A stretch of DNA of 64,000 nt from a virus. Where the stretch lies: positions 37,318 to 101,317 of IMG/VR virus record IMGVR_UViG_3300018063_000012; one strand, given 5' to 3'. The position numbers and the translations under genes were made by a program. A model generated the notes under the pieces. The model made no database searches and was not told the DNA's origin. It saw only the letters and a program-made list of their open reading frames with translations. Positions 4,301 through 55,279 of this stretch are shown here, in pieces (within the stretch, counting starts at the first letter, position 1; the number at the start of each line of letters is the position of its first letter).

Positions 4301-5122
4301 ATGTTTAGAAAGTTAGCGAGAGTCATAGGACTATTTGCCTTGTTGTGCTTAGGGTGCGCGAATACATCCTGCGATACTTTTAAAGAACGGATAACGATGA
4401 AAAATCCGGATATTAAAAAAGTATACGTTGTTCACATCACGGGTAGAATATCAACAGAATGGATTCGTAGAGCAGACAGTGCTTTACGAATAGCTAATGG
4501 GGATCCCGTAATTTTCCATATTAACTCGCCGGGCGGCGGAGCATCAGAGAGCTTCCTGACAGAACACGGACTTTCACTGTTAAGGAAGAAGTATATGTCG
4601 CCAGTATATGTGTACTCAGATTACGGAATTTACTCCGGAGGATATCTAGCGGCACTTCCACTGGGCAAGATAGTTATCGCACCGGCCGGTGGGGTAGGAT
4701 CCATTGGTGTAATTAGTGAGGTTGATATAATCGTAAAGTCAGATTCTATGCGGGGAATTAAACGTATTCTATTTCGTTCAGGTAAGATGAAATGGGTAGA
4801 AGCTGGGTATTATGAATTGACACCCGAACAGACTAAGTACCTACAGAGTATCGTCGATAATGTGTACTCAATGTTTATAGATAGGATTATTGTGAATCGT
4901 CACGACGCTGTCTTTAGAGCAGTGGCTAACAGATTACATAAACAACCATCAATTGCACAAGTAGACTCTGTATTACGAGTTGTTTGTGATGGACGGGAAT
5001 ACGCACCAACCCAAGCACTTGCACTTGGACTAATAGACGGGGTTGCATATTTTGACGAGTTGTTAGAAGTAGTCAAGTATGAGAATATAATTCCGAGTGC
5101 AATGGTAGTCGATATTTATTAG
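4301..5122 (+). CDS. S49 family (SppA-like) peptidase with lipoprotein-type signal peptide
   Basis: INSPGG, SGGY, GSIGV motifs; N-terminal hydrophobic stretch ending LLCLGC. Confidence 0.8.
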   Translation: MFRKLARVIGLFALLCLGCANTSCDTFKERITMKNPDIKKVYVVHITGRISTEWIRRADSALRIANGDPVIFHINSPGGGASESFLTEHGLSLLRKKYMSPVYVYSDYGIYSGGYLAALPLGKIVIAPAGGVGSIGVISEVDIIVKSDSMRGIKRILFRSGKMKWVEAGYYELTPEQTKYLQSIVDNVYSMFIDRIIVNRHDAVFRAVANRLHKQPSIAQVDSVLRVVCDGREYAPTQALALGLIDGVAYFDELLEVVKYENIIPSAMVVDIY

Positions 5123-11839: not shown

Positions 11840-12079
11840 ATGGCTTGGAGTGAAGCGGCAAGAGCCGCATCGGCGGCAGTTAGACGACAACGTGGTAAGA
11901 AGATTACACCCATGCGACGGAAAGAGCCAGCATATGCTCGAGTAAGCAGGGTGCTGAGAAAGTTGCATCGGGAAAAAACGAAAGCGGACATCCCTTATCC
12001 CAATGCAAAAGAAACAAGTCGATTTAGAACTTTGCAAAAAAGGATTCGTAAAGTTAAGAGTTATACAGTCAAAAGGTAA
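11840..12079 (+). CDS. MAW-leader highly basic protein, copy 1
   Basis: MAWSEAARAASAAVRRQRGKK; GGAGG SD. Confidence 0.85.
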   Translation: MAWSEAARAASAAVRRQRGKKITPMRRKEPAYARVSRVLRKLHREKTKADIPYPNAKETSRFRTLQKRIRKVKSYTVKR

Positions 12080-12081
12080 AG

Positions 12082-12315
12082 ATGGCTTGGTCAGATGCGG
12101 CACGAGCCGCCAGCGCTCAAGTTAGACGTCAGCGGGGTAAGAAGATTATACCAAAAAGACAAATAAAGAGATCGCTAACTAAAAGGTATACTCCAGTTCA
12201 ATTGGAACGCATTAAAGCTGGTCGCCCCCATAAGGGTCGTGAAGGTGGGCTAACAAGACGAGAACATAAAAAAGGTATTAATAGATATGTTCAAATTATG
12301 CGAGGACAAAGATAA
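12082..12315 (+). CDS. MAW-leader highly basic protein, copy 2
   Basis: MAWSDAARAASAQVRRQRGKK; 24 of 77 residues K/R, 4 acidic. Confidence 0.85.
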   Translation: MAWSDAARAASAQVRRQRGKKIIPKRQIKRSLTKRYTPVQLERIKAGRPHKGREGGLTRREHKKGINRYVQIMRGQR

Positions 12316-12605
12316 TGGCCTGGAGTGATGAAGCGAGAGCGGCGGCGTTAGCTAAAAGAAAGGCGAGTCCTAAAAATCGTCAGAGTAATAGGAAACGGGT
12401 GCTAAGTCCATATGGGAATATGAAACGTAAACAGACAGCAGGAATTCTATTCAAACGCAAACAAGCGTATCAAGTAGTGCAAGGGTTAAAGAAACAATTC
12501 ACTAAAGCTTTAAAGACGGGTAATGAAGCCCGCGTAAGGACATTACGTAAAAGATATCAACGAGTGAAAGATACTGGATTTTATATTAGTCGGGGAGGCA
12601 GATAA
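12315..12605 (+). CDS. MAW-leader highly basic protein, copy 3
   Basis: MAWSDEARAAALAKRK...SRGGR*. Confidence 0.85.
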   Translation: MAWSDEARAAALAKRKASPKNRQSNRKRVLSPYGNMKRKQTAGILFKRKQAYQVVQGLKKQFTKALKTGNEARVRTLRKRYQRVKDTGFYISRGGR

Positions 12606-12947
12606 ATGGCTTGGTCAGATGCCGCAAGAGAGGCTTCAGCAAGAGCACGTAAAGGGGGATTTGGTAGATTACGTGCGGCAGTAGATAAAAGACGTAAACA
12701 ACAATTAGAAGGGAGTAGTGTACTATCCTTAAAAAATATTAATCAACTTAAACGGATTCGTAATCGTCAAGCTCGTCGAATTGAATCTAAAGTTAAAAGT
12801 TTACGAGCTAAAGCTACTGGCACATATGCCGGACACCCATCAGATAGACGAGCGCATAGAGCAAACTTAAGACTTCGTAAATTACAAAGCTCTAAATCAG
12901 GAAGTATGGCTGGAGTTAATTGGCATATAAATAGAGGTGGACGGTAA
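12606..12947 (+). CDS. MAW-leader highly basic protein, copy 4
   Basis: MAWSDAAREASARARKG...NRGGR*. Confidence 0.85.
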   Translation: MAWSDAAREASARARKGGFGRLRAAVDKRRKQQLEGSSVLSLKNINQLKRIRNRQARRIESKVKSLRAKATGTYAGHPSDRRAHRANLRLRKLQSSKSGSMAGVNWHINRGGR

Positions 12948-13270
12948 TGGCTTGGACAGACGAAGCCCGTAGAGCATCTGCTTTAGCAAGAATTAATCGC
13001 GGACCTAAACGTGCTAAATATGAACGTGTTATCCGTAAAGTTGATAGGGCGATTAAGAATGACCGTCAAACTATTAATAATATGCAAAAAGTTATTGCTG
13101 GAATGCGGAAGGTTAGACCGGCGATAAGGGAAGTTCAGAAAGCACAGAAACAGTTAGGTAAATATTCTAAACGGTTCCAAATAAATAAAAAGAGGGCATT
13201 GAGAGTGAGACTACGATATCCCGGTTTTTCAGGTTATAAAGGAATTGATATAGCTAAAGGAGGCAGATAA
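12947..13270 (+). CDS. MAW-leader highly basic protein, copy 5
   Basis: MAWTDEARRASALAR...KGGR*. Confidence 0.85.
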   Translation: MAWTDEARRASALARINRGPKRAKYERVIRKVDRAIKNDRQTINNMQKVIAGMRKVRPAIREVQKAQKQLGKYSKRFQINKKRALRVRLRYPGFSGYKGIDIAKGGR

Positions 13271-13591
13271 ATGGCTTGGTCAGATGCGGCACGAGAGGCC
13301 TCAGCAAGAGCACGTAGAGGAAACAGACGGATTAACCCTACTGTAGCAGTAAGTAGAAGTAAAGGGATTTCGTAAGCTTCCGAAGGACAAAGAGAGGTAA
13401 CTATAACTGGACGCCGTTCCTGGAAGGCAAAGATATACCATCCGGGGAAGGGGTCACTGAAAAGACTTAGAAAACTTATTAGAGCAAGTAAAAAGAGTGG
13501 AAATGTCAAAAATGAGACACGGAGACCGCTGCGATACACAAAAGGAGCTACTAAATTACATACATTTTTTCTAATTAAAGGTGGTCGTTAA
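13271..13591 (+). pseudogene. MAW-leader basic protein, copy 6, interrupted by an in-frame TAA at 13373-13375
   Basis: Manual translation MAWSDAAREASARARRG...SKGIS*ASEGQ...FLIKGGR*; 107 codons, the same size as intact copies. Confidence 0.85.
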
Positions 13592-13651
13592 AAAGTGGTA
13601 TCAGAAAGAGTAAAAGATACCGAACATTATATTATTAGAGGTGGACGATAA
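13592..13651 (+). pseudogene. C-terminal remnant of a further MAW cassette
   Basis: KVVSERVKDTEHYIIRGGR* resembles the copy 3 C-terminus YQRVKDTGFYISRGGR*. Confidence 0.7.
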
Positions 13652-13923
13652 TGGCTTGGGGACCTGAGGCAAGAGCGGCTAGTGCTTTGGCTAGACGAAC
13701 GAGCAGAGGATTTGCAAAATTAAATAGACAGAAACGTTTAACTCTTAAACATGCATCCAAATTGACAATGTTACATAAGAAGCTTTCTGGCATAGGTAAT
13801 GTAATAGGTAAAAATCATCCTATGTATAAGATCGCCCAAAAACGGTCAGCAAGAGTGTTTCGTAAATTACAATCACTGAAAAGTAAACGTCCAGAATATT
13901 TTGTGAGTAGAGGTGGACGGTAA
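13651..13923 (+). CDS. MAW-leader highly basic protein, copy 7
   Basis: MAWGPEARAASALARR...SRGGR*. Confidence 0.85.
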   Translation: MAWGPEARAASALARRTSRGFAKLNRQKRLTLKHASKLTMLHKKLSGIGNVIGKNHPMYKIAQKRSARVFRKLQSLKSKRPEYFVSRGGR

Positions 13924-14255
13924 TGGCTTGGTCAGATGCGGCACGAGCCGCCAGCGCTCAAGTTAGACGTCAGAGAGGTAAGACTCTAACTGGATCTAAA
14001 TTAACACCGGCAGGTGCTAAACCATTACAGAAACAGTTAGCGCGACTACGCGTCACAAGACAATCCCAGCGGAGAAACGCATTAGCAGATTTTAGGCTTA
14101 AACATGTCACCAAAACTTCACCCGGAATGCGAAAAATATCATTTGCTGAACGCAGGAAATTTTTGAGAGGATATAGAGGGACTAAAGAGAAAATAAGTAA
14201 AACATTGAAACGATTGAGATTCGTTAGAAATGCATCTAAGAGAGGGGGCAGATAG
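13923..14255 (+). CDS. MAW-leader highly basic protein, copy 8
   Basis: MAWSDAARAASAQVRRQRGK...KRGGR*; first 51 nt identical to copy 2. Confidence 0.85.
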   Translation: MAWSDAARAASAQVRRQRGKTLTGSKLTPAGAKPLQKQLARLRVTRQSQRRNALADFRLKHVTKTSPGMRKISFAERRKFLRGYRGTKEKISKTLKRLRFVRNASKRGGR

Positions 14256-14256
14256 T

Positions 14257-14559
14257 ATGAAGGGACGACCAATTAAATCATTTACCGGAGCGCAATCAAA
14301 TGTTCCATTAGCCGCCGCAGGTGAAAAGTTTTTGTTATATGGTTTTACATATGTTGGTACTGGAACCGGAAATTTAGCGGGATTAAACGATACGTTTTAT
14401 TTCGCATCATCTACAGCAGGTGATATGAGATCGGAAAATTTTGAGGAACCTATTGAATTAATTGGTCCCGTTCTTTTAACTATAACTACAGGGGGTAATT
14501 TAACTCTTGTGGGTAAAGTACTTAAGGAGATTGCGACTGGTAAGATAGGAACAAACTGA
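14257..14559 (+). CDS. Small beta-rich protein, possibly virion-associated
   Basis: ATG 14257 uses the SD inside the RGGR codons of copy 8; Gly/Thr-rich. Confidence 0.55.
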   Translation: MKGRPIKSFTGAQSNVPLAAAGEKFLLYGFTYVGTGTGNLAGLNDTFYFASSTAGDMRSENFEEPIELIGPVLLTITTGGNLTLVGKVLKEIATGKIGTN

Positions 14560-14937: not shown

Positions 14938-15219
14938 ATGGAACTGATGAACAATGTAATAAAGGCCAAAGAATCCTTTAAACGACTGGAGTTACATAAA
15001 TCTATCAGAGAAAACTACAAGAGTAGGAAGTTTATTTCCTTCTGCGTAGTCTGGTCCTTCGGAAGCTTGATGTTTTATATGAAAGCGATGACCGCCGCTG
15101 AATGGATCGGATTCTCCGAATGGCTATTAGGTATATTTTTCTTTTTCAATATCGCCGACAAATCGGGGTTACTGGGGATGATTAAGAAACAGGATAGCGA
15201 TACTGAGAGATTGAAATGA
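14938..15219 (+). CDS. Putative holin (two TM segments)
   Basis: SRKF followed by two hydrophobic helices; in the lysis cassette. Confidence 0.6.
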   Translation: MELMNNVIKAKESFKRLELHKSIRENYKSRKFISFCVVWSFGSLMFYMKAMTAAEWIGFSEWLLGIFFFFNIADKSGLLGMIKKQDSDTERLK

Positions 15220-15677
15220 AGTCTATAATTCAGATAGAAAAAGATAGGGAGTATCAACGACTTTATAAAATAAAGAAGTCTATAATTCAGATAGAAAAAG
15301 ATAGGGAGTATCAACGACTTTATAAAATAAAGAATAGAGATAAGATTAATAGTCAAGTCCAAGCGTGGGTTAAAAATCATCCTGACTATTATCCCGAATA
15401 TAGGTGTCAGTATAAGTACCAAATATCATTTAAAGATAAACAAGATATGCTGATTAACCAGAATTCTGAATGTGCTATCTGTAGACAATTACTACAGATA
15501 GATAAAGCGTTTATTGACCATGACCACAAATCAAGTAAGATACGAGGATTACTGTGTTATAATTGTAATATGGGGATAGGTCATTTACATGATTCTATAG
15601 TTGTTCTTGAACAAGCTATTGAATATCTAAAAATATATGCTACGGATACTTCTACAACGACTAAAGATAAAAGGTAA
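15216..15677 (+). CDS. Endonuclease VII-type (His-Me finger) free-standing homing endonuclease
   Basis: CAIC...DHDH...RGLLCYNCNMGIG. Confidence 0.85.
   Translation: MKSIIQIEKDREYQRLYKIKKSIIQIEKDREYQRLYKIKNRDKINSQVQAWVKNHPDYYPEYRCQYKYQISFKDKQDMLINQNSECAICRQLLQIDKAFIDHDHKSSKIRGLLCYNCNMGIGHLHDSIVVLEQAIEYLKIYATDTSTTTKDKR
15219..15332 (+). repeat. Perfect 57-bp tandem duplication (KSIIQIEKDREYQRLYKIK x2)
   Basis: 15219-15275 identical to 15276-15332. Confidence 0.95.
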
Positions 15678-16427: not shown

Positions 16428-17252
16428 ATGTCACAGACAAAAACTGAAGACGAATTGAAGAAAGAGGCGGAGGAAAAAGCACAGGAAGAGGCGAAGGCTA
16501 AAGCCGAGGCTGAAAAGAAAGCTAAGGATGAGGCAGACGCGAAGGCTAAAGCAGAGGCAGAGGAAAAAGCTAAAGCAGAAGCCGAGGTTAAGAAACAGCT
16601 TGATGATTTAGTTAAGCGTGGAATTTTGAAGAAAGAGGGCGGGGTATTAGTTGAGGCGAAGTTTGACCCAACTTTGACACCAGCCTACAAAGAGTTAAAC
16701 ACAACGGTAGTTCAGAAAATAAGCGCCGCAACAGATAGAGTTGCACAACTCGAGAAAGAGTTGGAAAAGACTTCAAATGTCCTTAAATCAAAAGAGGATA
16801 TGGAAGCGGCAGACAAACAGCGGATGACCGAGGAGTTGAGTAAATTGAAAAGTGACTTGACGATTGAAAATCAAAAGGCTCGCGAAGCCGGGATTCAATT
16901 GCTGAAGACGCAAACTGCGGTAAAAAAGGGATTGCCCTTTAACTTCTTGGCGTATGTAACTGGAGAGACGGCCGAGGCGATTGAGGCCTCAGTTGAGAAA
17001 GTAATGGGAGATTTCGCTCTTCAAGCGAATAAATTTACTAAAGAACAGTTACAAGCCGCAGAGGCCGCGGCCGCAGAGAAGGCAAGCAAGGAGACCGAGG
17101 AGAAACTAAAACCTCGGGGTAAATCAACCCAGAATGCCGCTGAACCGGGACATATCTTTACTCGCGAAGAGATTAGAAGAATGACCTCGGCTGAATTTGC
17201 TGCAAACCGAGTCGATATCCTGCGCCAACAGAGCGAAGGATTAATAAAATAA
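16428..17252 (+). CDS. Capsid scaffolding protein
   Basis: Ala/Glu/Lys-rich coiled coil directly upstream of the capsid gene; C-terminal FTREEIRRMTSAEF. Confidence 0.75.
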   Translation: MSQTKTEDELKKEAEEKAQEEAKAKAEAEKKAKDEADAKAKAEAEEKAKAEAEVKKQLDDLVKRGILKKEGGVLVEAKFDPTLTPAYKELNTTVVQKISAATDRVAQLEKELEKTSNVLKSKEDMEAADKQRMTEELSKLKSDLTIENQKAREAGIQLLKTQTAVKKGLPFNFLAYVTGETAEAIEASVEKVMGDFALQANKFTKEQLQAAEAAAAEKASKETEEKLKPRGKSTQNAAEPGHIFTREEIRRMTSAEFAANRVDILRQQSEGLIK

Positions 17253-17267
17253 ACGGAGGATTAGACT

Positions 17268-18560
17268 ATGCCCAGTTCATTAGGTAGTCAGAATTTAGCA
17301 CCCAACATTGCGGAAGCTTTTGGTAAACTTGTACCAGAAGTGTTTTCGCAGGAAATCGAGTTGAAGACTCGGGAATTGGGGTTTACCCGATTTCGGGATT
17401 TTGTAGTTTTGAAAGAGGATCTGCAGAAAGATCCAGGGAATTCTCTTCACATTCCTAAAGTAGCTGAATTGCGTGGTGCGCAGAGCCTCGGTCAGACTAA
17501 AATTCTGGCTGGGTCCGGTCAAGCTATTAACACTGGCTTTTTGACCCTGACTCCGACTGAATTTGGTGATGAGATTCAAATCACCCAGTATGCTGGCCTT
17601 GTATCGCCATCTGATTTGGTAGATATGGCACGTGAACTGTTAGCCCGTCAGGCTCTGAAGTCTGAAAATTTTACAGTTCGTGACGTTATGTTCGGAGCTT
17701 CCGCTAACCGGCGTTTCGCTGGTGGTGTGGCCGCGAAGACTGACGTTACCGCAGATTTAGACAAGGATGATATCGACGCTGTAGTCGAGAACCTTGAGAA
17801 CAACGAGTCTTTGAAATGGGCAGGAGAAACCTTTATGGGTTTCATCCATCCGTTTGCGAAAACGGTCATTTTGAATGATGTTGTGAGCGCCGCTGTGTAT
17901 CAGGCCGCAGTCGGTGGACAGCTGTATGCTGGTGAGATTGGTATGGTAAATAGATGCCGGTTTATCGAATCTTCCTACGTTCCTCAGGATGCATATTCTG
18001 CGGCTGGGTTGGCTTCGGCCGGTTCCTCCGGTATTACGATCGCTGATGCCAATGGTTATACTTTGGCTCCGAATCTGTGTCGAGCGGAGACGATTACCTT
18101 TACGTATACTGCTTCTGGAGATTCTTGGGCCGTGTCCGGTTCCAAATCCGGAGCGCGTAAAGCCGCTCTTTTTACTTCGACTGATAACCCGAACGATGCT
18201 ACGAAGAGTCCTGTGGTGGCGAAAGCCGCGTCATATACTGACGGTAACGCAACGACTTATAAAGTGGCGTTGGCTGTGGAAGATGAAGATGGGAATACGA
18301 TCGGCTACGATGTTGTACTGAACGCTGGCGCTATGACTGGCGCGGCCTCTGATGACACCGCTACATTGCTGATTGTGGTTCATACCTTGACTTCTATTTT
18401 CGGTCAGAGACATCTGGCCTTCGGTGTGATTAAGCCAGTTACCTTCTTGGGTGCTGAGGCATTTGACTATGGACGTATCGTGGGCATAGCTTGGAACGCG
18501 TTTTGGGCATGCGACTTTCTTCATAAATCATATGGATATGTCATGCAGGCTCTAAGGTAA
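17268..18560 (+). CDS. Major capsid protein (HK97 fold, N4-gp56-like)
   Basis: PEVFSQEI, EFGDEIQIT, FIHP, GEIGMVNRCRFIES, DYGRIVGIAW; follows scaffold; strong hairpin downstream. Confidence 0.85.
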   Translation: MPSSLGSQNLAPNIAEAFGKLVPEVFSQEIELKTRELGFTRFRDFVVLKEDLQKDPGNSLHIPKVAELRGAQSLGQTKILAGSGQAINTGFLTLTPTEFGDEIQITQYAGLVSPSDLVDMARELLARQALKSENFTVRDVMFGASANRRFAGGVAAKTDVTADLDKDDIDAVVENLENNESLKWAGETFMGFIHPFAKTVILNDVVSAAVYQAAVGGQLYAGEIGMVNRCRFIESSYVPQDAYSAAGLASAGSSGITIADANGYTLAPNLCRAETITFTYTASGDSWAVSGSKSGARKAALFTSTDNPNDATKSPVVAKAASYTDGNATTYKVALAVEDEDGNTIGYDVVLNAGAMTGAASDDTATLLIVVHTLTSIFGQRHLAFGVIKPVTFLGAEAFDYGRIVGIAWNAFWACDFLHKSYGYVMQALR

Positions 18561-19796: not shown

Positions 19797-20296
19797 TGAT
19801 TAAAGTCACCATAGAAAAAAATGACCTTGATAAACTTAAATCATTATTTTCTGCATTAGGGGAGAATGCTCCAAGAGCCGCCGATGGACTTATGCAGACT
19901 ATAGCATCAGATTTGAAGTTCGCCTTTAAACAGAATCTATGGGAACGTAAACTAAAATTGGAACCACTTAAACCATCATACTTACAGAGTAAAGTTGCAA
20001 TGGGTAGGTTTCCACAAATATTGATTAGCACAAGTCAAATGGTAGCGTCGGTAGAATCTCGAAAATTAGAGAACTTTGTATACTTTATTGGAGTACCATC
20101 AGGGAAGGTGCATAAAAAGACAGGTATTAAATTGAGTGATTTGGCGATGATACATGAGTTCGGTTCAATTGCAAGAGGTATACCACCACGTCCAGCTTGG
20201 ACATTGACAGCAGTGCGATTTGAGAAACAGGTGCCAAAGATAATTGATAAGTTCCTAACTAAGTTCGCTAAAGATTTACTAGCAGGTAAAGTATAA
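19796..20296 (+). CDS. Neck / tail completion protein (virion morphogenesis, HK97 gp10-like)
   Basis: AMIHEFG...IPPRPAW. Confidence 0.75.
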   Translation: MIKVTIEKNDLDKLKSLFSALGENAPRAADGLMQTIASDLKFAFKQNLWERKLKLEPLKPSYLQSKVAMGRFPQILISTSQMVASVESRKLENFVYFIGVPSGKVHKKTGIKLSDLAMIHEFGSIARGIPPRPAWTLTAVRFEKQVPKIIDKFLTKFAKDLLAGKV

Positions 20297-20619
20297 TGGC
20301 TTGGACAGAGGCCGCAAGAGCCGCGAGTGCATTAGTTAGACGACAGCGTGGTAAGAAGATTACTCCAATAGGAGATAAGAAATTTGCCGGACTTAAACTA
20401 AAAGCAACTGGAAAATCACTAACGAAAAGAGTACCGTTCGGTATTAATAGAGCGGGGAAGACTGTATATACAAGAGTGCCGATAAAACCAAACCTGAAGT
20501 ATAAGAATAGGAAATCTAATCAACAGAAACCCTTTGTTCCAAGTGGTAGATTTTATAACGTGGTAGGACGCCACGGCTGGAAGAAGAGGATTAAAAATAC
20601 AATAAAGTTGGGCGGATAA
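20296..20619 (+). CDS. MAW-leader highly basic protein, dispersed copy 9
   Basis: MAWTEAARAASALVRRQRGKKITP...KLGG*. Confidence 0.85.
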   Translation: MAWTEAARAASALVRRQRGKKITPIGDKKFAGLKLKATGKSLTKRVPFGINRAGKTVYTRVPIKPNLKYKNRKSNQQKPFVPSGRFYNVVGRHGWKKRIKNTIKLGG

Positions 20620-21530: not shown

Positions 21531-23039
21531 ATGACAATTGGGATTAACATAACAGAGTTGGTGTCGCAAGGTTCACCGGTCTTAGAAGGTGATAACGAAC
21601 TGACTCCGGGATTCTTGGTAGTGTCTAAACGAGGCCCGGCTGACTTTCCAATACTGATTACCAGTATGAATCAATTCAAAAGACTATTCGGTGAGCATAC
21701 TACTGCCGGATACGGAGCTTATGTTTTGGAAGGTTATTTTTTGAACGGCGGAAGAAAAGCTTTTGTGAGTCGTATAGTTGGCTCCGGTGCCGCGGCTTCC
21801 GCGGTTACATTGGTCGATAGAGCCAGTACGCCATTGGACACATTGACGATTGAAGCTGGATATAAAGGACGACTTGACAAAGGAACTTGGGGGGATAATC
21901 TATCGGTAGCTATTACTGATAACGTAGACGATACCACTCTGTTTGACTTAGAAGTACTTCTCTCCGGTGTGACTAAAGAAGTATGGCGAGGAGTGACTCC
22001 TGCGACAGCTGTCACAGCAATAAATGACTCTGTATCAGGTTCCGAATATATCAAAGCGACTAACGAGAACTCTACTTCAACAGCACCGGATAATAATCCA
22101 GCAGTCGGAAGTTCAAACTTAAGTGCCGGTGTCGCAGGTTCCGCCCCGGCCGTTACAGCATATAATGGAGTGCAGGCTGACTTTACAGGGGTGTATGCTT
22201 TCGATGCACTTGATATTAGTCATCTGGCTAATGCGGAGTCGACTGATGCAACGCATTTAGATAATCTGCGAGATTATTGTTCAGCGAGAGGAACCATTCT
22301 TGGAGTGGCCTCTATTCCAGTTGCATCAACTGTGTCTTCCGCTAAGACATTCGGACAGGCATTGCAAATTTCAAATGCTTATATGGCACTGTATGGCGGA
22401 TGGGTTTTGGTGAGTGACCCAATTGGTTCGGGTCCTAATCCACTTAAATGGGTGTCCCCGGTTGGACATGTCCTTGGAGTATATGCCAGAACATTGCGTG
22501 ACCGTGGAGTGCATAAAGCCCCGGCTGGTGTAACAGACGGCCAGCTAAAAGGAGTTTTTGATATTGATATGGATGTGAATAATGATACAGACTTGACAGA
22601 CTTAGCCACTAATGGTGTGAATACGCTTAAGGCAGTGCCAGGTTATGGTAATTGCGTTCTGGTGTCCAGAACTCTCTCCAAAGATGTTCGGTGGAGATTC
22701 GTGAACGTTCGGAACTTGTTTAACTATGTAAAACGGGCGCTGAAGAATGGATTGGCTTTCGTTCAGCAAGAACCGAATGATGGGGTGCTAAGGGCGAAGG
22801 TTAAGAATAACACTGTCCTTCCTTTTATGCGCACTTTGTTTCAGGCAGGAGCTTTTGGGTCCGGTAAATTTGAGGACTTGGTAAGTATCATTTGTGATGA
22901 ATCTAATAACCCGCCAAACGAGATTGAGTTGGGAAATTTCCATCTGGATATGACTTTCTTCCCAAGCAAACCAGCGGAGAGTATTTTCATCTCTGTAGCC
23001 CAGCAACAGACAGGTAGTTCAGCCGCGTCCGAGACTTAA
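21531..23039 (+). CDS. Contractile tail sheath protein
   Basis: RGVHKAPAG, WRFVNVR, EPN, ICDESNNP, PSKPAE. Confidence 0.95.
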   Translation: MTIGINITELVSQGSPVLEGDNELTPGFLVVSKRGPADFPILITSMNQFKRLFGEHTTAGYGAYVLEGYFLNGGRKAFVSRIVGSGAAASAVTLVDRASTPLDTLTIEAGYKGRLDKGTWGDNLSVAITDNVDDTTLFDLEVLLSGVTKEVWRGVTPATAVTAINDSVSGSEYIKATNENSTSTAPDNNPAVGSSNLSAGVAGSAPAVTAYNGVQADFTGVYAFDALDISHLANAESTDATHLDNLRDYCSARGTILGVASIPVASTVSSAKTFGQALQISNAYMALYGGWVLVSDPIGSGPNPLKWVSPVGHVLGVYARTLRDRGVHKAPAGVTDGQLKGVFDIDMDVNNDTDLTDLATNGVNTLKAVPGYGNCVLVSRTLSKDVRWRFVNVRNLFNYVKRALKNGLAFVQQEPNDGVLRAKVKNNTVLPFMRTLFQAGAFGSGKFEDLVSIICDESNNPPNEIELGNFHLDMTFFPSKPAESIFISVAQQQTGSSAASET

Positions 23040-36674: not shown

Positions 36675-38178
36675 TATTGATTTAATAATACCAGATAATT
36701 TTATTGGAATTCCCTACGACTTCCAGAAGGTGGGTGCCGCCTTTTTAGTAGCCAAAGATAGATGTCTACTAGGGGATAGTATGGGACTTGGCAAGACTAT
36801 ACAATCACTTTTAGCAATGTGTATACTAAAACGCATAGATAAATTGCCAGCACGAGTACTTGTTGTAACCGTAAACTCCGCGGTGTTTCAATGGGAAAAA
36901 GAATTTAAGAAATTTACGACCGGATATAATGTACTCACGGTAACTGCTAAATTAAATCCTACCGAACGAGCCAGCTTCTATGGTAATCTACCAGAAGAAT
37001 GTGTTATGATTACAAACTATTCGCTGATGAGAATAGATAATGAGTTCATCTTACAATTGGGATTTAAATTAATTATATGGGACGAGTCAGCTATTTTCAA
37101 AAATTATAAGAGCAAGACATTTAAAGCCGCCCAGGATTTAAGTATGGCGGCTGAACGGTCATGGGCATTATCAGCGTATGCGATGCCGAATAATCCATTT
37201 GAGTTATTCGGAGTATACTCTGTAACTGTGCCAGACTTATTCGCCCGATATTATGGGACAAGACGATTTGATGGGATTACAAAGTTTAGAGAATTGTATA
37301 CACTTGAAGAGCCAATTATTGGACGAGGCGGAGTACCAAAAATGACGGAACAGGGATATATCATAAAACAGACAGTAGGATATAAAAACTTGGATAGATT
37401 AAAACAACGCATATCACCATTTTATATTGGACGCACATATGCAGATGTAGCCGTTCAAGTTCCTAGTCTGATTGTAAAAGAAGCTAATTTAGAAATGACT
37501 AATACTCAAAGAGCACTATACTATGAAACAGAACATGGAATAAACGGTAAGATTCCAATGGATATGATATTGGCTAAATTTGTCGCTCTCCAGCAGATAA
37601 GTAATGGAGTAGATTTTTATAAACATACTAAAGGCACGGATGTATCACCAAAAATAGAAGAGATTAAAAGATTCCTATCCGAAGAGTTGGAAGAGGAAAA
37701 GATAGTAATATTCTCTAAGTTTCGACAGTTTATTGATATACTTGAAGATGAATTGAAGGAGTATTCCCCAGTCAGAATTACTGGCGACGAGAGTATTGAT
37801 GAACGAGAACGTAATAAGGAAAAGTTTACTAACGACCAGAACTGCCGGGTCTTACTGATGACACAAGCGGGCGGATTCGCCCTGAACTTACAAGCCGCCC
37901 GGGTGATGATGTTTGTAGACCTACCATTTTCTTTTGGAATGATGGAGCAGATAATTGGGCGTATTCGCCGGATTGGAAGTGAACACGAGGTAGTTGTAGC
38001 TGTATTCCTAATGATGAATGATAGCTTGGATAGGCACGTCCTCGATGTTTTACGGTCTAAAAAAATGATAATTGAACAAGTTATGGGCGGACGAGATGTA
38101 TTAGATAATGTTGCCCAGAATGACATCAAAGAAATACTAAAACGTAGATTGGAAGAGAAAGGTCAAGATGTGTCCTAA
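36643..38178 (+). CDS. SNF2/DEAD-like helicase
   Basis: DSMGLGKT, WDESA, ALNLQAA, QIIGRIRRIG. Confidence 0.9.
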   Translation: MNVSDLKSLTDIDLIIPDNFIGIPYDFQKVGAAFLVAKDRCLLGDSMGLGKTIQSLLAMCILKRIDKLPARVLVVTVNSAVFQWEKEFKKFTTGYNVLTVTAKLNPTERASFYGNLPEECVMITNYSLMRIDNEFILQLGFKLIIWDESAIFKNYKSKTFKAAQDLSMAAERSWALSAYAMPNNPFELFGVYSVTVPDLFARYYGTRRFDGITKFRELYTLEEPIIGRGGVPKMTEQGYIIKQTVGYKNLDRLKQRISPFYIGRTYADVAVQVPSLIVKEANLEMTNTQRALYYETEHGINGKIPMDMILAKFVALQQISNGVDFYKHTKGTDVSPKIEEIKRFLSEELEEEKIVIFSKFRQFIDILEDELKEYSPVRITGDESIDERERNKEKFTNDQNCRVLLMTQAGGFALNLQAARVMMFVDLPFSFGMMEQIIGRIRRIGSEHEVVVAVFLMMNDSLDRHVLDVLRSKKMIIEQVMGGRDVLDNVAQNDIKEILKRRLEEKGQDVS

Positions 38179-54238: not shown

Positions 54239-55279
54239 GTGGCGAAACAGACTTTAAATGAAACAATTAAAATGTTACAGAAAGAATATGATTCTATAAT
54301 TCCAGACCTTACCGGGATTACCAAGATATTCCCGCATATTCAATCTGGAAGTCTTGTAGTGGATTTATTGACCGGGATTAACGGATTTCCAATTGGACGT
54401 ATTACCGAGATAGCGGGTGAATTTAGTTCAGGAAAAACTACTCTAGCACTTCATGCCGCCGCAGACATTCAAAAGATGGGACGAGTAGTTGTGTATGCGG
54501 ATTGGGAACAGGCGCTAGATGTGAACTATGCTAAAGCATTAGGGGTGGACTTAACTCCAGTGGAAGAGGGCGGAAAATTTATTTTATTGACACCGGAAAC
54601 TCTTGAAGATGGGTGGGAGGCTTTACATCACTTGCTACAACATAATGAGATTGGATTGGTAGTATTGGACTCCGTATCAGCCATGATGCCTAGAGATATG
54701 TTTAATGAGGATATGGAAGCCAGTCATCGCATAGCCCTGCAAGCATCACTGTTAAACAAGCAATGGATTAAGCTGGTGCAGGAATGTCGGAATATTGACT
54801 GCGTAGCCTTGGTGCTCAATCAGATGAGAACTACTTTTAAGACGACACCGTATGGAACGACCGTCTCAGAAGAATCAACTGGCGGTGTCGCACTTAAATT
54901 CTATTCGTCTATTCGAATCTTCCTCAAGATATCCGGACGGATTAAAGGTTCGGTTTTGAATCAGGTATCACAGATAGAAGAGGAAGGAGTGATTGGCCAG
55001 AAGGTAACGGCTACCTTTCGTAAGAATAAGATGGGGAACCCACTTCGCGCCGGTCAATTCTTTGTGAGATATGGCACGGGTGCAGATAATATTTACTCAC
55101 TGATGACTGTAGCGATTGAGAAGGACTTGATTAAACAGACTGGAGCATATTTTATTGTGCCCGGTATGGAGAAGAAAGTGCAGGGAATGGAACAGTTGAG
55201 AGCATATCTGGAAACTAATAAGGAACTATGTCAGTCATTGGCGACTGAGATAGGATGGGATACTAAATATTTCAAATGA
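54239..55279 (+). CDS. recA: RecA recombinase
   Basis: GRITEIAGEFSSGKTT, LDSVSA, NQMR, TGGVALKFYSSIRI. Confidence 0.95.
   Translation: MAKQTLNETIKMLQKEYDSIIPDLTGITKIFPHIQSGSLVVDLLTGINGFPIGRITEIAGEFSSGKTTLALHAAADIQKMGRVVVYADWEQALDVNYAKALGVDLTPVEEGGKFILLTPETLEDGWEALHHLLQHNEIGLVVLDSVSAMMPRDMFNEDMEASHRIALQASLLNKQWIKLVQECRNIDCVALVLNQMRTTFKTTPYGTTVSEESTGGVALKFYSSIRIFLKISGRIKGSVLNQVSQIEEEGVIGQKVTATFRKNKMGNPLRAGQFFVRYGTGADNIYSLMTVAIEKDLIKQTGAYFIVPGMEKKVQGMEQLRAYLETNKELCQSLATEIGWDTKYFK

Follow-up and report, generated by a model that had tools for sequence, protein, structure and literature searches.

A chained array of small polycationic phage genes with a common N-terminal leader helix

Introduction

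The viral record IMGVR_UViG_3300018063_000012 of IMG/VR carries, in the 64,000-nt stretch from position 37,318 to position 101,317 (hereafter the window, to which all coordinates refer unless they are marked as genome positions), an array of small, strongly basic genes. The array occupies 11840-14255 on the plus strand and comprises eight intact genes, one unit broken by a nonsense mutation and one remnant of a gene tail (the intact genes treated individually below are c1 to c5, c7 and c8). In an initial annotation it was taken for a set of self-contained, shufflable cassettes, in which the C-terminal RGGR tail of each copy doubles as the Shine-Dalgarno (SD) site of the next gene and in which the block made up of SD site, stop, start and leader serves as a recombination repeat. 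Here we describe the array, its relatives and the signals at its junctions. The genes belong to a widespread and apparently undescribed phage family, which is a more interesting result than the overlap between tail and SD site. The explanation that we favor, with a probability of roughly 0.6 when taken as a whole, is that the array encodes a small, polycationic and mostly helical family from chained genes, that the N-terminal leader is selected as a peptide, and that exchange between units is anchored at the leader. The same explanation takes the array to be the larger part of one late operon without terminators.

Organization of the Array

The first unit begins at 11840, upstream of the position 12290 at which the array had been thought to start. 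Its gene, c1 (11840..12079, plus strand; 79 aa, net charge +21), has the leader MAWSEAARAASAAVRRQRGKK and the tail VKR, and a strong non-coding SD site, GGGAGGGTGA, lies in front of it. After a gap of 2 nt comes c2 (12082..12315, plus strand; 77 aa), the tail of which, RGQR, includes GAGGA in its codons as the SD site for c3. RGGR, initially assigned to every copy, is therefore absent from these two. The genes c3 (12315..12605), c4 (12606..12947) and c5 (12947..13270), all on the plus strand, encode 96, 113 and 107 aa and end in FYISRGGR, HINRGGR and IAKGGR, respectively. Unit 6 (13271..13591, plus strand) carries an in-frame TAA at 13373-13375, and its frame otherwise continues to ...FLIKGGR and a stop. 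It is followed by a leaderless remnant of 60 nt (13592..13651, plus strand), which resembles the 3′ end of c3 (...RVKDTEHYIIRGGR and a stop) and gives c7 its SD site and its TAATG overlap. The array closes with c7 (13651..13923, plus strand; 90 aa, tail YFVSRGGR) and c8 (13923..14255, plus strand; 110 aa, tail SKRGGR). The leaderless remnant and the nonsense mutation in unit 6 indicate that units decay through point mutation and illegitimate deletion rather than through tidy excision of cassettes. The first gene outside the family (14257..14559, plus strand; 100 aa when read from its ATG at 14257) is unrelated to the array genes; it starts 1 nt past the stop of c8 and has the tail of c8 as its SD site.

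The junctions between units are extremely tight. Stop and start overlap as TAATG at the ATGs at 12315, 12947, 13651 and 13923, and the stop abuts the start as TAAATG at 12606 and 13271, all of which can be read directly and had been given correctly from the outset. The tail codons have the general form GGAGGCAGATAA or AGAGGTGGACG(G/A)TAA, the SD tails being CGGGGAGGCAGATAA in c3, AAAGGAGGCAGATAA in c5, AGAGGTGGACGGTAA in both c4 and c7, and AGAGGTGGACGATAA in the remnant; AAAGGTGGTCGTTAA in the broken unit 6 and AGAGGGGGCAGATAG in c8 are variants.

The array proteins range from 77 to 113 aa, with a pI of 11.7-12.0 and a net charge of +20 to +29, and each unit begins with MAW[STG][DEP][AE]AR.A. 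Behind this leader the bodies are mutually unalignable (median shuffle z 0.1 over 55 pairs), the exceptions being c1-c3 (z 5.9) and c4-c7 (z 4.5). The array is not called by Tandem Repeats Finder, as the units are too diverged.

Just before the first array gene, the segment 11816-11839 holds the strong non-coding SD site and an in-frame mini-open reading frame (mini-ORF) ending in ...REGD-TAA-ATG. Its DNA resembles the junction block of the units, and it may be a relic of a former upstream unit.

A Family Defined by Its Leader

Members of the family at large were found in IMG/VR by a DNA-pattern scan followed by a strict peptide filter, which gave 74 members in 40 contigs. They are 76-172 aa long (5th to 95th percentile), have a net charge of +8 to +41 and often stand in runs of 2-5. 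Their sole conserved part is an N-terminal amphipathic helix, M-A-W-[ST]-[DE]-x-A-R-x-A-[AS]-x3-R-[RK], which is invariant at M1, W3, A7, R8 and A10 across 69 proteins. Modeled from the family alignment by AlphaFold, the leader is predicted to be a helix over residues 5-20, with a predicted local distance difference test score (pLDDT) of about 90. The model of c5 consists of the leader helix, one helix of 70 residues and a disordered tail with a pLDDT below 50. A further pattern scan over contigs returned, among the matches listed, two true members in contig L202, nearly all of the rest being chance matches.

In unrelated phages, the genes around them are consistently ones for virion assembly. 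Members are found in the orders large terminase-[member]-portal-[two members]-MuF-scaffold, portal-...-[five members]-MuF-major capsid protein, [two to four members]-large terminase, and adaptor-[member]-head closure-[member]-neck-[member]-tail terminator.

In the genome that carries the array, the family profile marks exactly 11 places, namely the array and three dispersed members. One of the latter, d3 (20296-20619, plus strand; 107 aa, tail KLGG), lies within the window in the head-tail joining operon and has the orthologues P0006 and P0010. The other two lie outside the window: d1 at genome 15674-15982 (L227:4675-4983) and d2 at genome 27491-27760 (L227:16492-16761), where it precedes the large terminase gene by two genes. 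Although 11.8 kb apart, d1 and d2 have a leader that is identical over 54 nt (MTWTDEARRASALARRG), followed by unrelated bodies. In P0010, the d3 orthologue of one relative, the leader has degenerated (MAFTPEQHRLGGLASAAVRRQRGK...) with the body still about 68% identical, and the copy in the head-tail operon of that phage may function without the Trp helix.

Similarity searches did not connect the family to known proteins. Pfam, PHROGs and NCBIfam gave nothing above noise for the array proteins or for the long motif-bearing proteins described below, and the ESM Atlas gave no usable feature match. Two weak matches came up, one of c5 to Terminase_4 (E 0.008, below the cut-off) and the sole match in a profile search of the PDB (E 0.11, to the basic helix of a TRASH-domain protein), the latter judged to be due to chance. 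No match to the family was found among 50,697 records of cultured phages at the available sensitivity (blastn with the array; tblastn with the members, P0022 and P0023); matches of P0014 in cultured phages are due to an unrelated embedded domain. Nor did the literature that was searched mention the family motif.

The leader helix also occurs as an internal repeat. A set of long proteins (P0014-P0016 and P0018-P0024; 212-1047 aa, mixed charge) contains it 2-5 times, 80-190 residues apart, in the form W-[ST]-[DE]-x-A-R-x-A-[AS]-x3-R-[RK], and within any one protein the pair of residues ahead of the Trp does not vary (KA, NT, LA, VG). These long multi-repeat proteins look like fused arrays. A domain of about 50 residues at the N-terminus of P0023 is found again at the head of a prohead protease-scaffold fusion protein (L229:5950-8076), the gene for which lies between a MuF-like gene and a gene in the position of the major capsid gene in an unrelated viral contig. 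The presence of this domain on the protease-scaffold fusion links the motif-bearing proteins to head assembly.

The Tail as a Shine-Dalgarno Site

SD strength was expressed as predicted pairing to the anti-SD sequence in kcal/mol. For the array tails it ranges from -7.1 to -10.3 kcal/mol, and the ATG follows the core by 5-7 nt; the phage-wide median over 145 non-array genes is -5.4 kcal/mol, as against -3.0 at random positions, and the scaffold and capsid genes are preceded by GAGGAGG and GGAGGA. Thus, the phage uses SD sites, and the array tails are among its strongest. They are plausible strong ribosome-binding sites, including the tail of c8 for the non-family gene at 14257. The proposal that each tail doubles as the SD site of the next gene therefore stands as far as strength and distance are concerned, but the arrangement is a generic one, because a strong SD site is also present at 24 of the 75 other tight junctions of this phage, where the tails are rich in K, E, and G.

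How could such a tail arise? Where a stop overlaps or abuts the next ATG, the SD site of gene n+1 would have to sit in the last codons of gene n, and RGGR would be the in-frame spelling of that site in an Arg/Lys-rich protein. Both the SD site and the common origin of the junction block would hold the Gly-Gly core, and the flanking Arg residues would fit the composition of the protein. Coupled translation of the chain would be expected in vivo. As one component of the favored explanation, the overlap of RGGR with the SD site would be the ordinary, unavoidable result of chaining genes in a phage that uses SD sites, and a tail doing double duty in this way is not new biology in itself.

Another question is the level at which the tail is selected. 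RNA-level selection of RGGR had been suggested initially, along with a check of whether the codon choice for GGR always preserves SD pairing. The observed tails are indeed SD-like, but the check is uninformative: when all 576 synonymous encodings of RGGR are weighted by the codon usage of the phage, 97% of them pair at or below -6 kcal/mol (mean -9.4), and the observed mean of the RGGR tails is -9.6 kcal/mol, compared with the expected -9.4 (P=0.38). Since nearly every encoding of RGGR is SD-like, codon choice cannot tell RNA-level from protein-level selection, and GGR codons that destroy the SD site could hardly ever be encountered; knowing this spares a wasted experiment.

Comparison across the family says more. 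In IMG/VR, an SD-like site (at or below -6 kcal/mol) precedes 82% of 67 family starts, compared with 13% of random positions, and in 53 of those 67 it lies inside the last codons of the upstream ORF, which is either a family member or a structural gene. Upstream ORFs elsewhere end in ...GGV, GGA, GRR, RRI, RS or KG, which are SD sites translated in three frames, and RGGR does not stand at the end of any of the 70 members from other lineages. As the tails elsewhere share only their SD content, the SD site and not the peptide is the lasting constraint throughout the family. This pattern of sequences favors an RNA-level constraint on the Gly-Gly core.

Alternatively, RGGR with the aromatic and hydrophobic residues preceding it could be a functional C-terminal peptide, which makes an RGG-type contact with nucleic acid or serves as a recognition or processing signal, its likeness to an SD site being a free by-product. 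Three observations support this possibility and weigh against a constraint at the RNA level alone. The terminal Arg, despite its position in the spacer between SD site and ATG, is kept in seven of seven tails by four different codons (AGA, CGG, CGA, CGT). The orthologues P0007 and P0011 (see below) both retain GGR though the residue ahead of it changes. An aromatic-x-[IVF]-x motif stands ahead of the tail, so that the whole, [FYW]-x-[IVF]-x-[RK]GGR, reaches beyond the SD site. This alternative has to contend with the absence of RGGR from all 70 members in other phages as well as from c1, c2 and the three dispersed copies, with the predicted disorder of the tail (pLDDT below 50), and with tails elsewhere having nothing but SD content in common, and we consider it unlikely as an account of the tail. 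The terminal Arg is nevertheless probably constrained as a peptide, and peptide-level constraint on the tail, or mere shared descent of the block, is also present in this lineage. Of the initial suggestion, SD-driven conservation of the Gly-Gly core is thus favored, with the terminal Arg as the part that does not fit.

No terminator and no promoter-like excess was found in or around the array junctions, and the junctions gave no Rfam match and no conserved structure by RNAalifold (-1.6 kcal/mol, no covariation). With a strong SD site in the end of every unit and no internal terminator, promoter or RNA structure, any permutation of the units would keep the translational chain.

Junction Repeats and Exchange Between Units

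The genes c2 and c8 are identical over exactly 51 nt from the ATG (12082-12132 = 13923-13973). This identity, which extends to synonymous sites, had been noticed at the start. With the peptide fixed and the codon usage that of this phage, the probability of 17 identical codons is about 5e-9, so that the repeats are not due to chance. The sharing of sequence reported between copies 4 and 6 corresponds to 29 identical nt at junctions 3/4 and 5/6 (12594-12622 = 13259-13287; GGAGGC AGA TAA ATG GCT TGG TCA GAT GC), which lie in an 85-nt block of 84% identity, and the leader of c5 has 28 nt identical to d1 and d2. The identical tracts end sharply and are followed by unrelated sequence. Unrelated bodies preceded by leaders with 51-54 identical nt show that recombination or gene conversion has happened.

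The repeats might instead have come from plain tandem duplication and fast divergence of the bodies, with purifying selection on both ends of the protein and no recombination between units. The residual similarity between the bodies of c1 and c3 and of c4 and c7 would agree with this, as would the general randomization of synonymous sites in the leaders (see below). It cannot, however, yield 51-54 identical nt beside unalignable bodies, nor a relative in which another leader precedes an orthologous body, and it is very improbable.

For the most part, what the junctions conserve is the peptide. At leader sites with the same amino acid in this genome, codon identity is 0.42 vs 0.26 expected, and after removal of five 'hot' pairs it is 0.34 vs 0.27 expected; the differences include switches between TCA and AGT for Ser and between CGA and AGA for Arg. 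Leader codon identity is at expectation in the other phages L018, L028, L081 and L011, and the leader helix is kept across contigs of widely differing nucleotide sequence. According to these comparisons of codons, selection on the peptide of the leader helix MAWSDAARAAxxxARR accounts for most of the junction repeat.

Is the SD-stop-start-leader block, then, also kept as a DNA recombination site of a dedicated cassette system, in which RecA would bring about programmed diversity? The identical tracts of 29-54 nt lie exactly at the unit borders. The phage does encode a RecA homologue, as had been stated (54239-55279, plus strand; PF00154, 167 bits). The content of the array appears to be unlike that of its closest relative, and turnover is shown by the broken unit and the remnant. 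On the other hand, neither the SD site nor the tail forms part of the c2/c8 and d1/d2 tracts, which start at the ATG, and the unit of exchange is therefore the leader and not the SD-stop-start-leader block; only the c4/c6 and c5/c8 tracts cross the stop. Most leader pairs are randomized at synonymous sites, both here and in other phages, and the leader also occurs on dispersed genes and inside long proteins, which argues against a dedicated DNA recombination site. The remnant without a leader points to illegitimate deletion. As to enzymes, neither a site-specific recombinase nor a reverse transcriptase was detected in the 82%-complete record (no PF00589 match for an integrase, no PF00078 match), and the leaders are the sole long repeat pairs. 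Taken together, we regard a dedicated system as quite improbable.

Two other readings were rejected. That of an integron or other site-specific cassette system lacks an integrase and structured junction sites, and that of a diversity-generating retroelement lacks a reverse transcriptase and a pair of template and variable repeats.

Logan contigs of two sequencing runs, one probably from the source sample and the other from a second study, match the window at at least 99% identity and break at the 51-nt repeat; those of the second study's run leave 13411-13811 uncovered. The contigs of both runs show no deletions, duplications, joints or indels, rare variants being invisible in contigs. As a weak test, this result says little against ongoing recombination, whether by the dedicated system or by the leader-anchored exchange that we prefer.

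According to the leader-anchored explanation, gene conversion would make identical tracts of 28-54 nt, and these would be substrates for ordinary homologous recombination, presumably with the involvement of RecA, which would swap leaders and bodies and would gain or lose units. The idea of a recombination repeat at the junctions thus survives as exchange at the leader, evident in the tracts of 51-54 nt, and not as a dedicated DNA site, the leader being conserved as a peptide. 'Cassette' would accordingly name a mode of evolution and not a dedicated mechanism, which again is a part of the explanation as a whole.

Relatives and Turnover of Units

Among 5.8 billion proteins there are only five related ones. 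P0011, P0007 and P0012 are each recorded on a contig of 5,634 bp, which is most likely one single contig. P0011 is the orthologue of c3, with a body that is 81% identical. P0007 is the orthologue of c5, with a body that is 83% identical, and in it a leader of the c4/c6 type plus a 9-residue insertion replaces the c5 leader. For the body of P0012 there is no match in this phage (z 1.8). Conversely, the 5.8 billion proteins include no homologue of c4, the gene between c3 and c5 here, other than c4 itself, and c8 has none either. An orthologue of c5 with another leader, a unit without a counterpart here and the lack of a c4 homologue on record together suggest that array content differs among relatives and that units turn over. 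Invariance of array content among relatives, which the initial annotation had put forward as a check on its proposal, is thus not what these records suggest. The shufflable cassette is borne out to the extent that content appears to differ from that of the relative and that permutation would keep the chain; the leaderless remnant does not correspond to clean excision.

No close relatives were found in IMG/VR with the major capsid protein, c3, P0006 and the family alignment as queries, nor in two metagenome scans of the Joint Genome Institute. More distant phages provide a further view of turnover. The related siphovirus-like contigs L008 and L095, the structural proteins of which are 45-55% identical, have single family genes after the head-tail adaptor, head-closure, neck and tail-terminator genes (L008:1698-4449, L095:4611-7302). 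Different slots are occupied in the two, and genes in matching slots share the leader only, their bodies being unrelated. Purifying selection on bodies was measured for one orthologous pair only, in IMG/VR (omega, the ratio of nonsynonymous to synonymous substitution, 0.14; synonymous divergence saturated).

Genomic Setting

The window belongs to a viral record of 101,317 bp with a completeness of 82% as estimated by CheckV. The phage is a myovirus, with a sheath gene at 21531. The array is flanked by tailspike-like genes on one side and by lysis and head genes on the other; the endolysin gene is at 15637, the scaffold gene at 16428, and the presumed major capsid gene, directly downstream of the scaffold gene, at 17268. 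A gene for an S49 peptidase (4301-5119) and a gene for a family A DNA polymerase (45408) are also present. The endonuclease VII-like gene (15216) carries a perfect tandem duplication at its 5′ end (57 bp x 2.1; 15218-15334), which repeats 19 residues (KSIIQIEKDREYQRLYKIK) at the N-terminus of the product, and short-read contigs break there.

Comparison with Known Systems and Possible Function

The array shares features with several known systems. The internal proteins of phage T4 (IPI, IPII, IPIII and Alt) are described as small, mostly basic proteins with a short common N-terminal capsid targeting sequence and diverse bodies (PMC3012670), and the genes of the T-even internal protein locus are described as lying side by side, with content that varies among related phages (PMC3012670, citing Repoila et al., 1994). 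Here, too, a short conserved N-terminus is carried by otherwise unrelated small basic proteins encoded by adjacent genes, and members of the MAW family occur in head, packaging and connector modules. Unlike the T4 proteins, to which it has no sequence homology (no PHROG, Pfam or NCBIfam match), the family has a leader of 16-20 residues that is also an internal repeat in long proteins, and its members occur both in arrays and dispersed among connector genes. The likeness is one of analogy, and packaging and leader cleavage would be no more than possibilities here.

In its stop-start overlaps, in the placing of SD sites in the last codons of upstream genes and in the lack of internal terminators, the array resembles translationally coupled operons. 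It differs from the usual ones in repeating the same tail peptide seven times, because the junction block was duplicated or converted along with the units. Prochlorosin-type precursors of ribosomally synthesized and post-translationally modified peptides (RiPPs) form gene libraries consisting of a leader and a variable body. In these, too, a genome contains many copies, which have a constant leader at the N-terminus and are unrelated downstream of it. Unlike RiPP precursors, the array bodies are Lys/Arg-rich helices of 60-100 residues without a core rich in Cys, Ser and Thr, and no modifying enzyme is encoded nearby, the neighbors being lysis and head genes and virion modules. Integron arrays likewise consist of units that are bounded by short repeats and read one way from one end, but the present array has neither an integrase nor an attC-like structured site, and its repeats are coding sequence conserved as a peptide.

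What might these proteins do? By analogy with the T4 internal proteins, we tentatively suggest that they could be late, virion-associated nucleic-acid-binding proteins, with the leader as a loading or anchoring helix. A more speculative extension, which we put forward with similarly low confidence, is that the MAW helix might be a portable tag shared across phages, either for targeting to the procapsid or the packaging machinery or for anchoring to nucleic acid, which would load a fast-turning-over polycationic repertoire into virions; the array might then be an undescribed counterpart of the T4 internal proteins that evolves by leader-anchored recombination. If the helix is a tag of this kind, for loading or anchoring, it would offer a general way of placing cargo in the capsids of many phage types, and the variable bodies would amount to a large reservoir, so far untapped, of nucleic-acid-binding or anti-defense proteins delivered by phages. 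The mosaic leaders, for their part, would provide a clean natural example of how peptide-constrained repeats of 30-50 nt drive gene turnover in phages.

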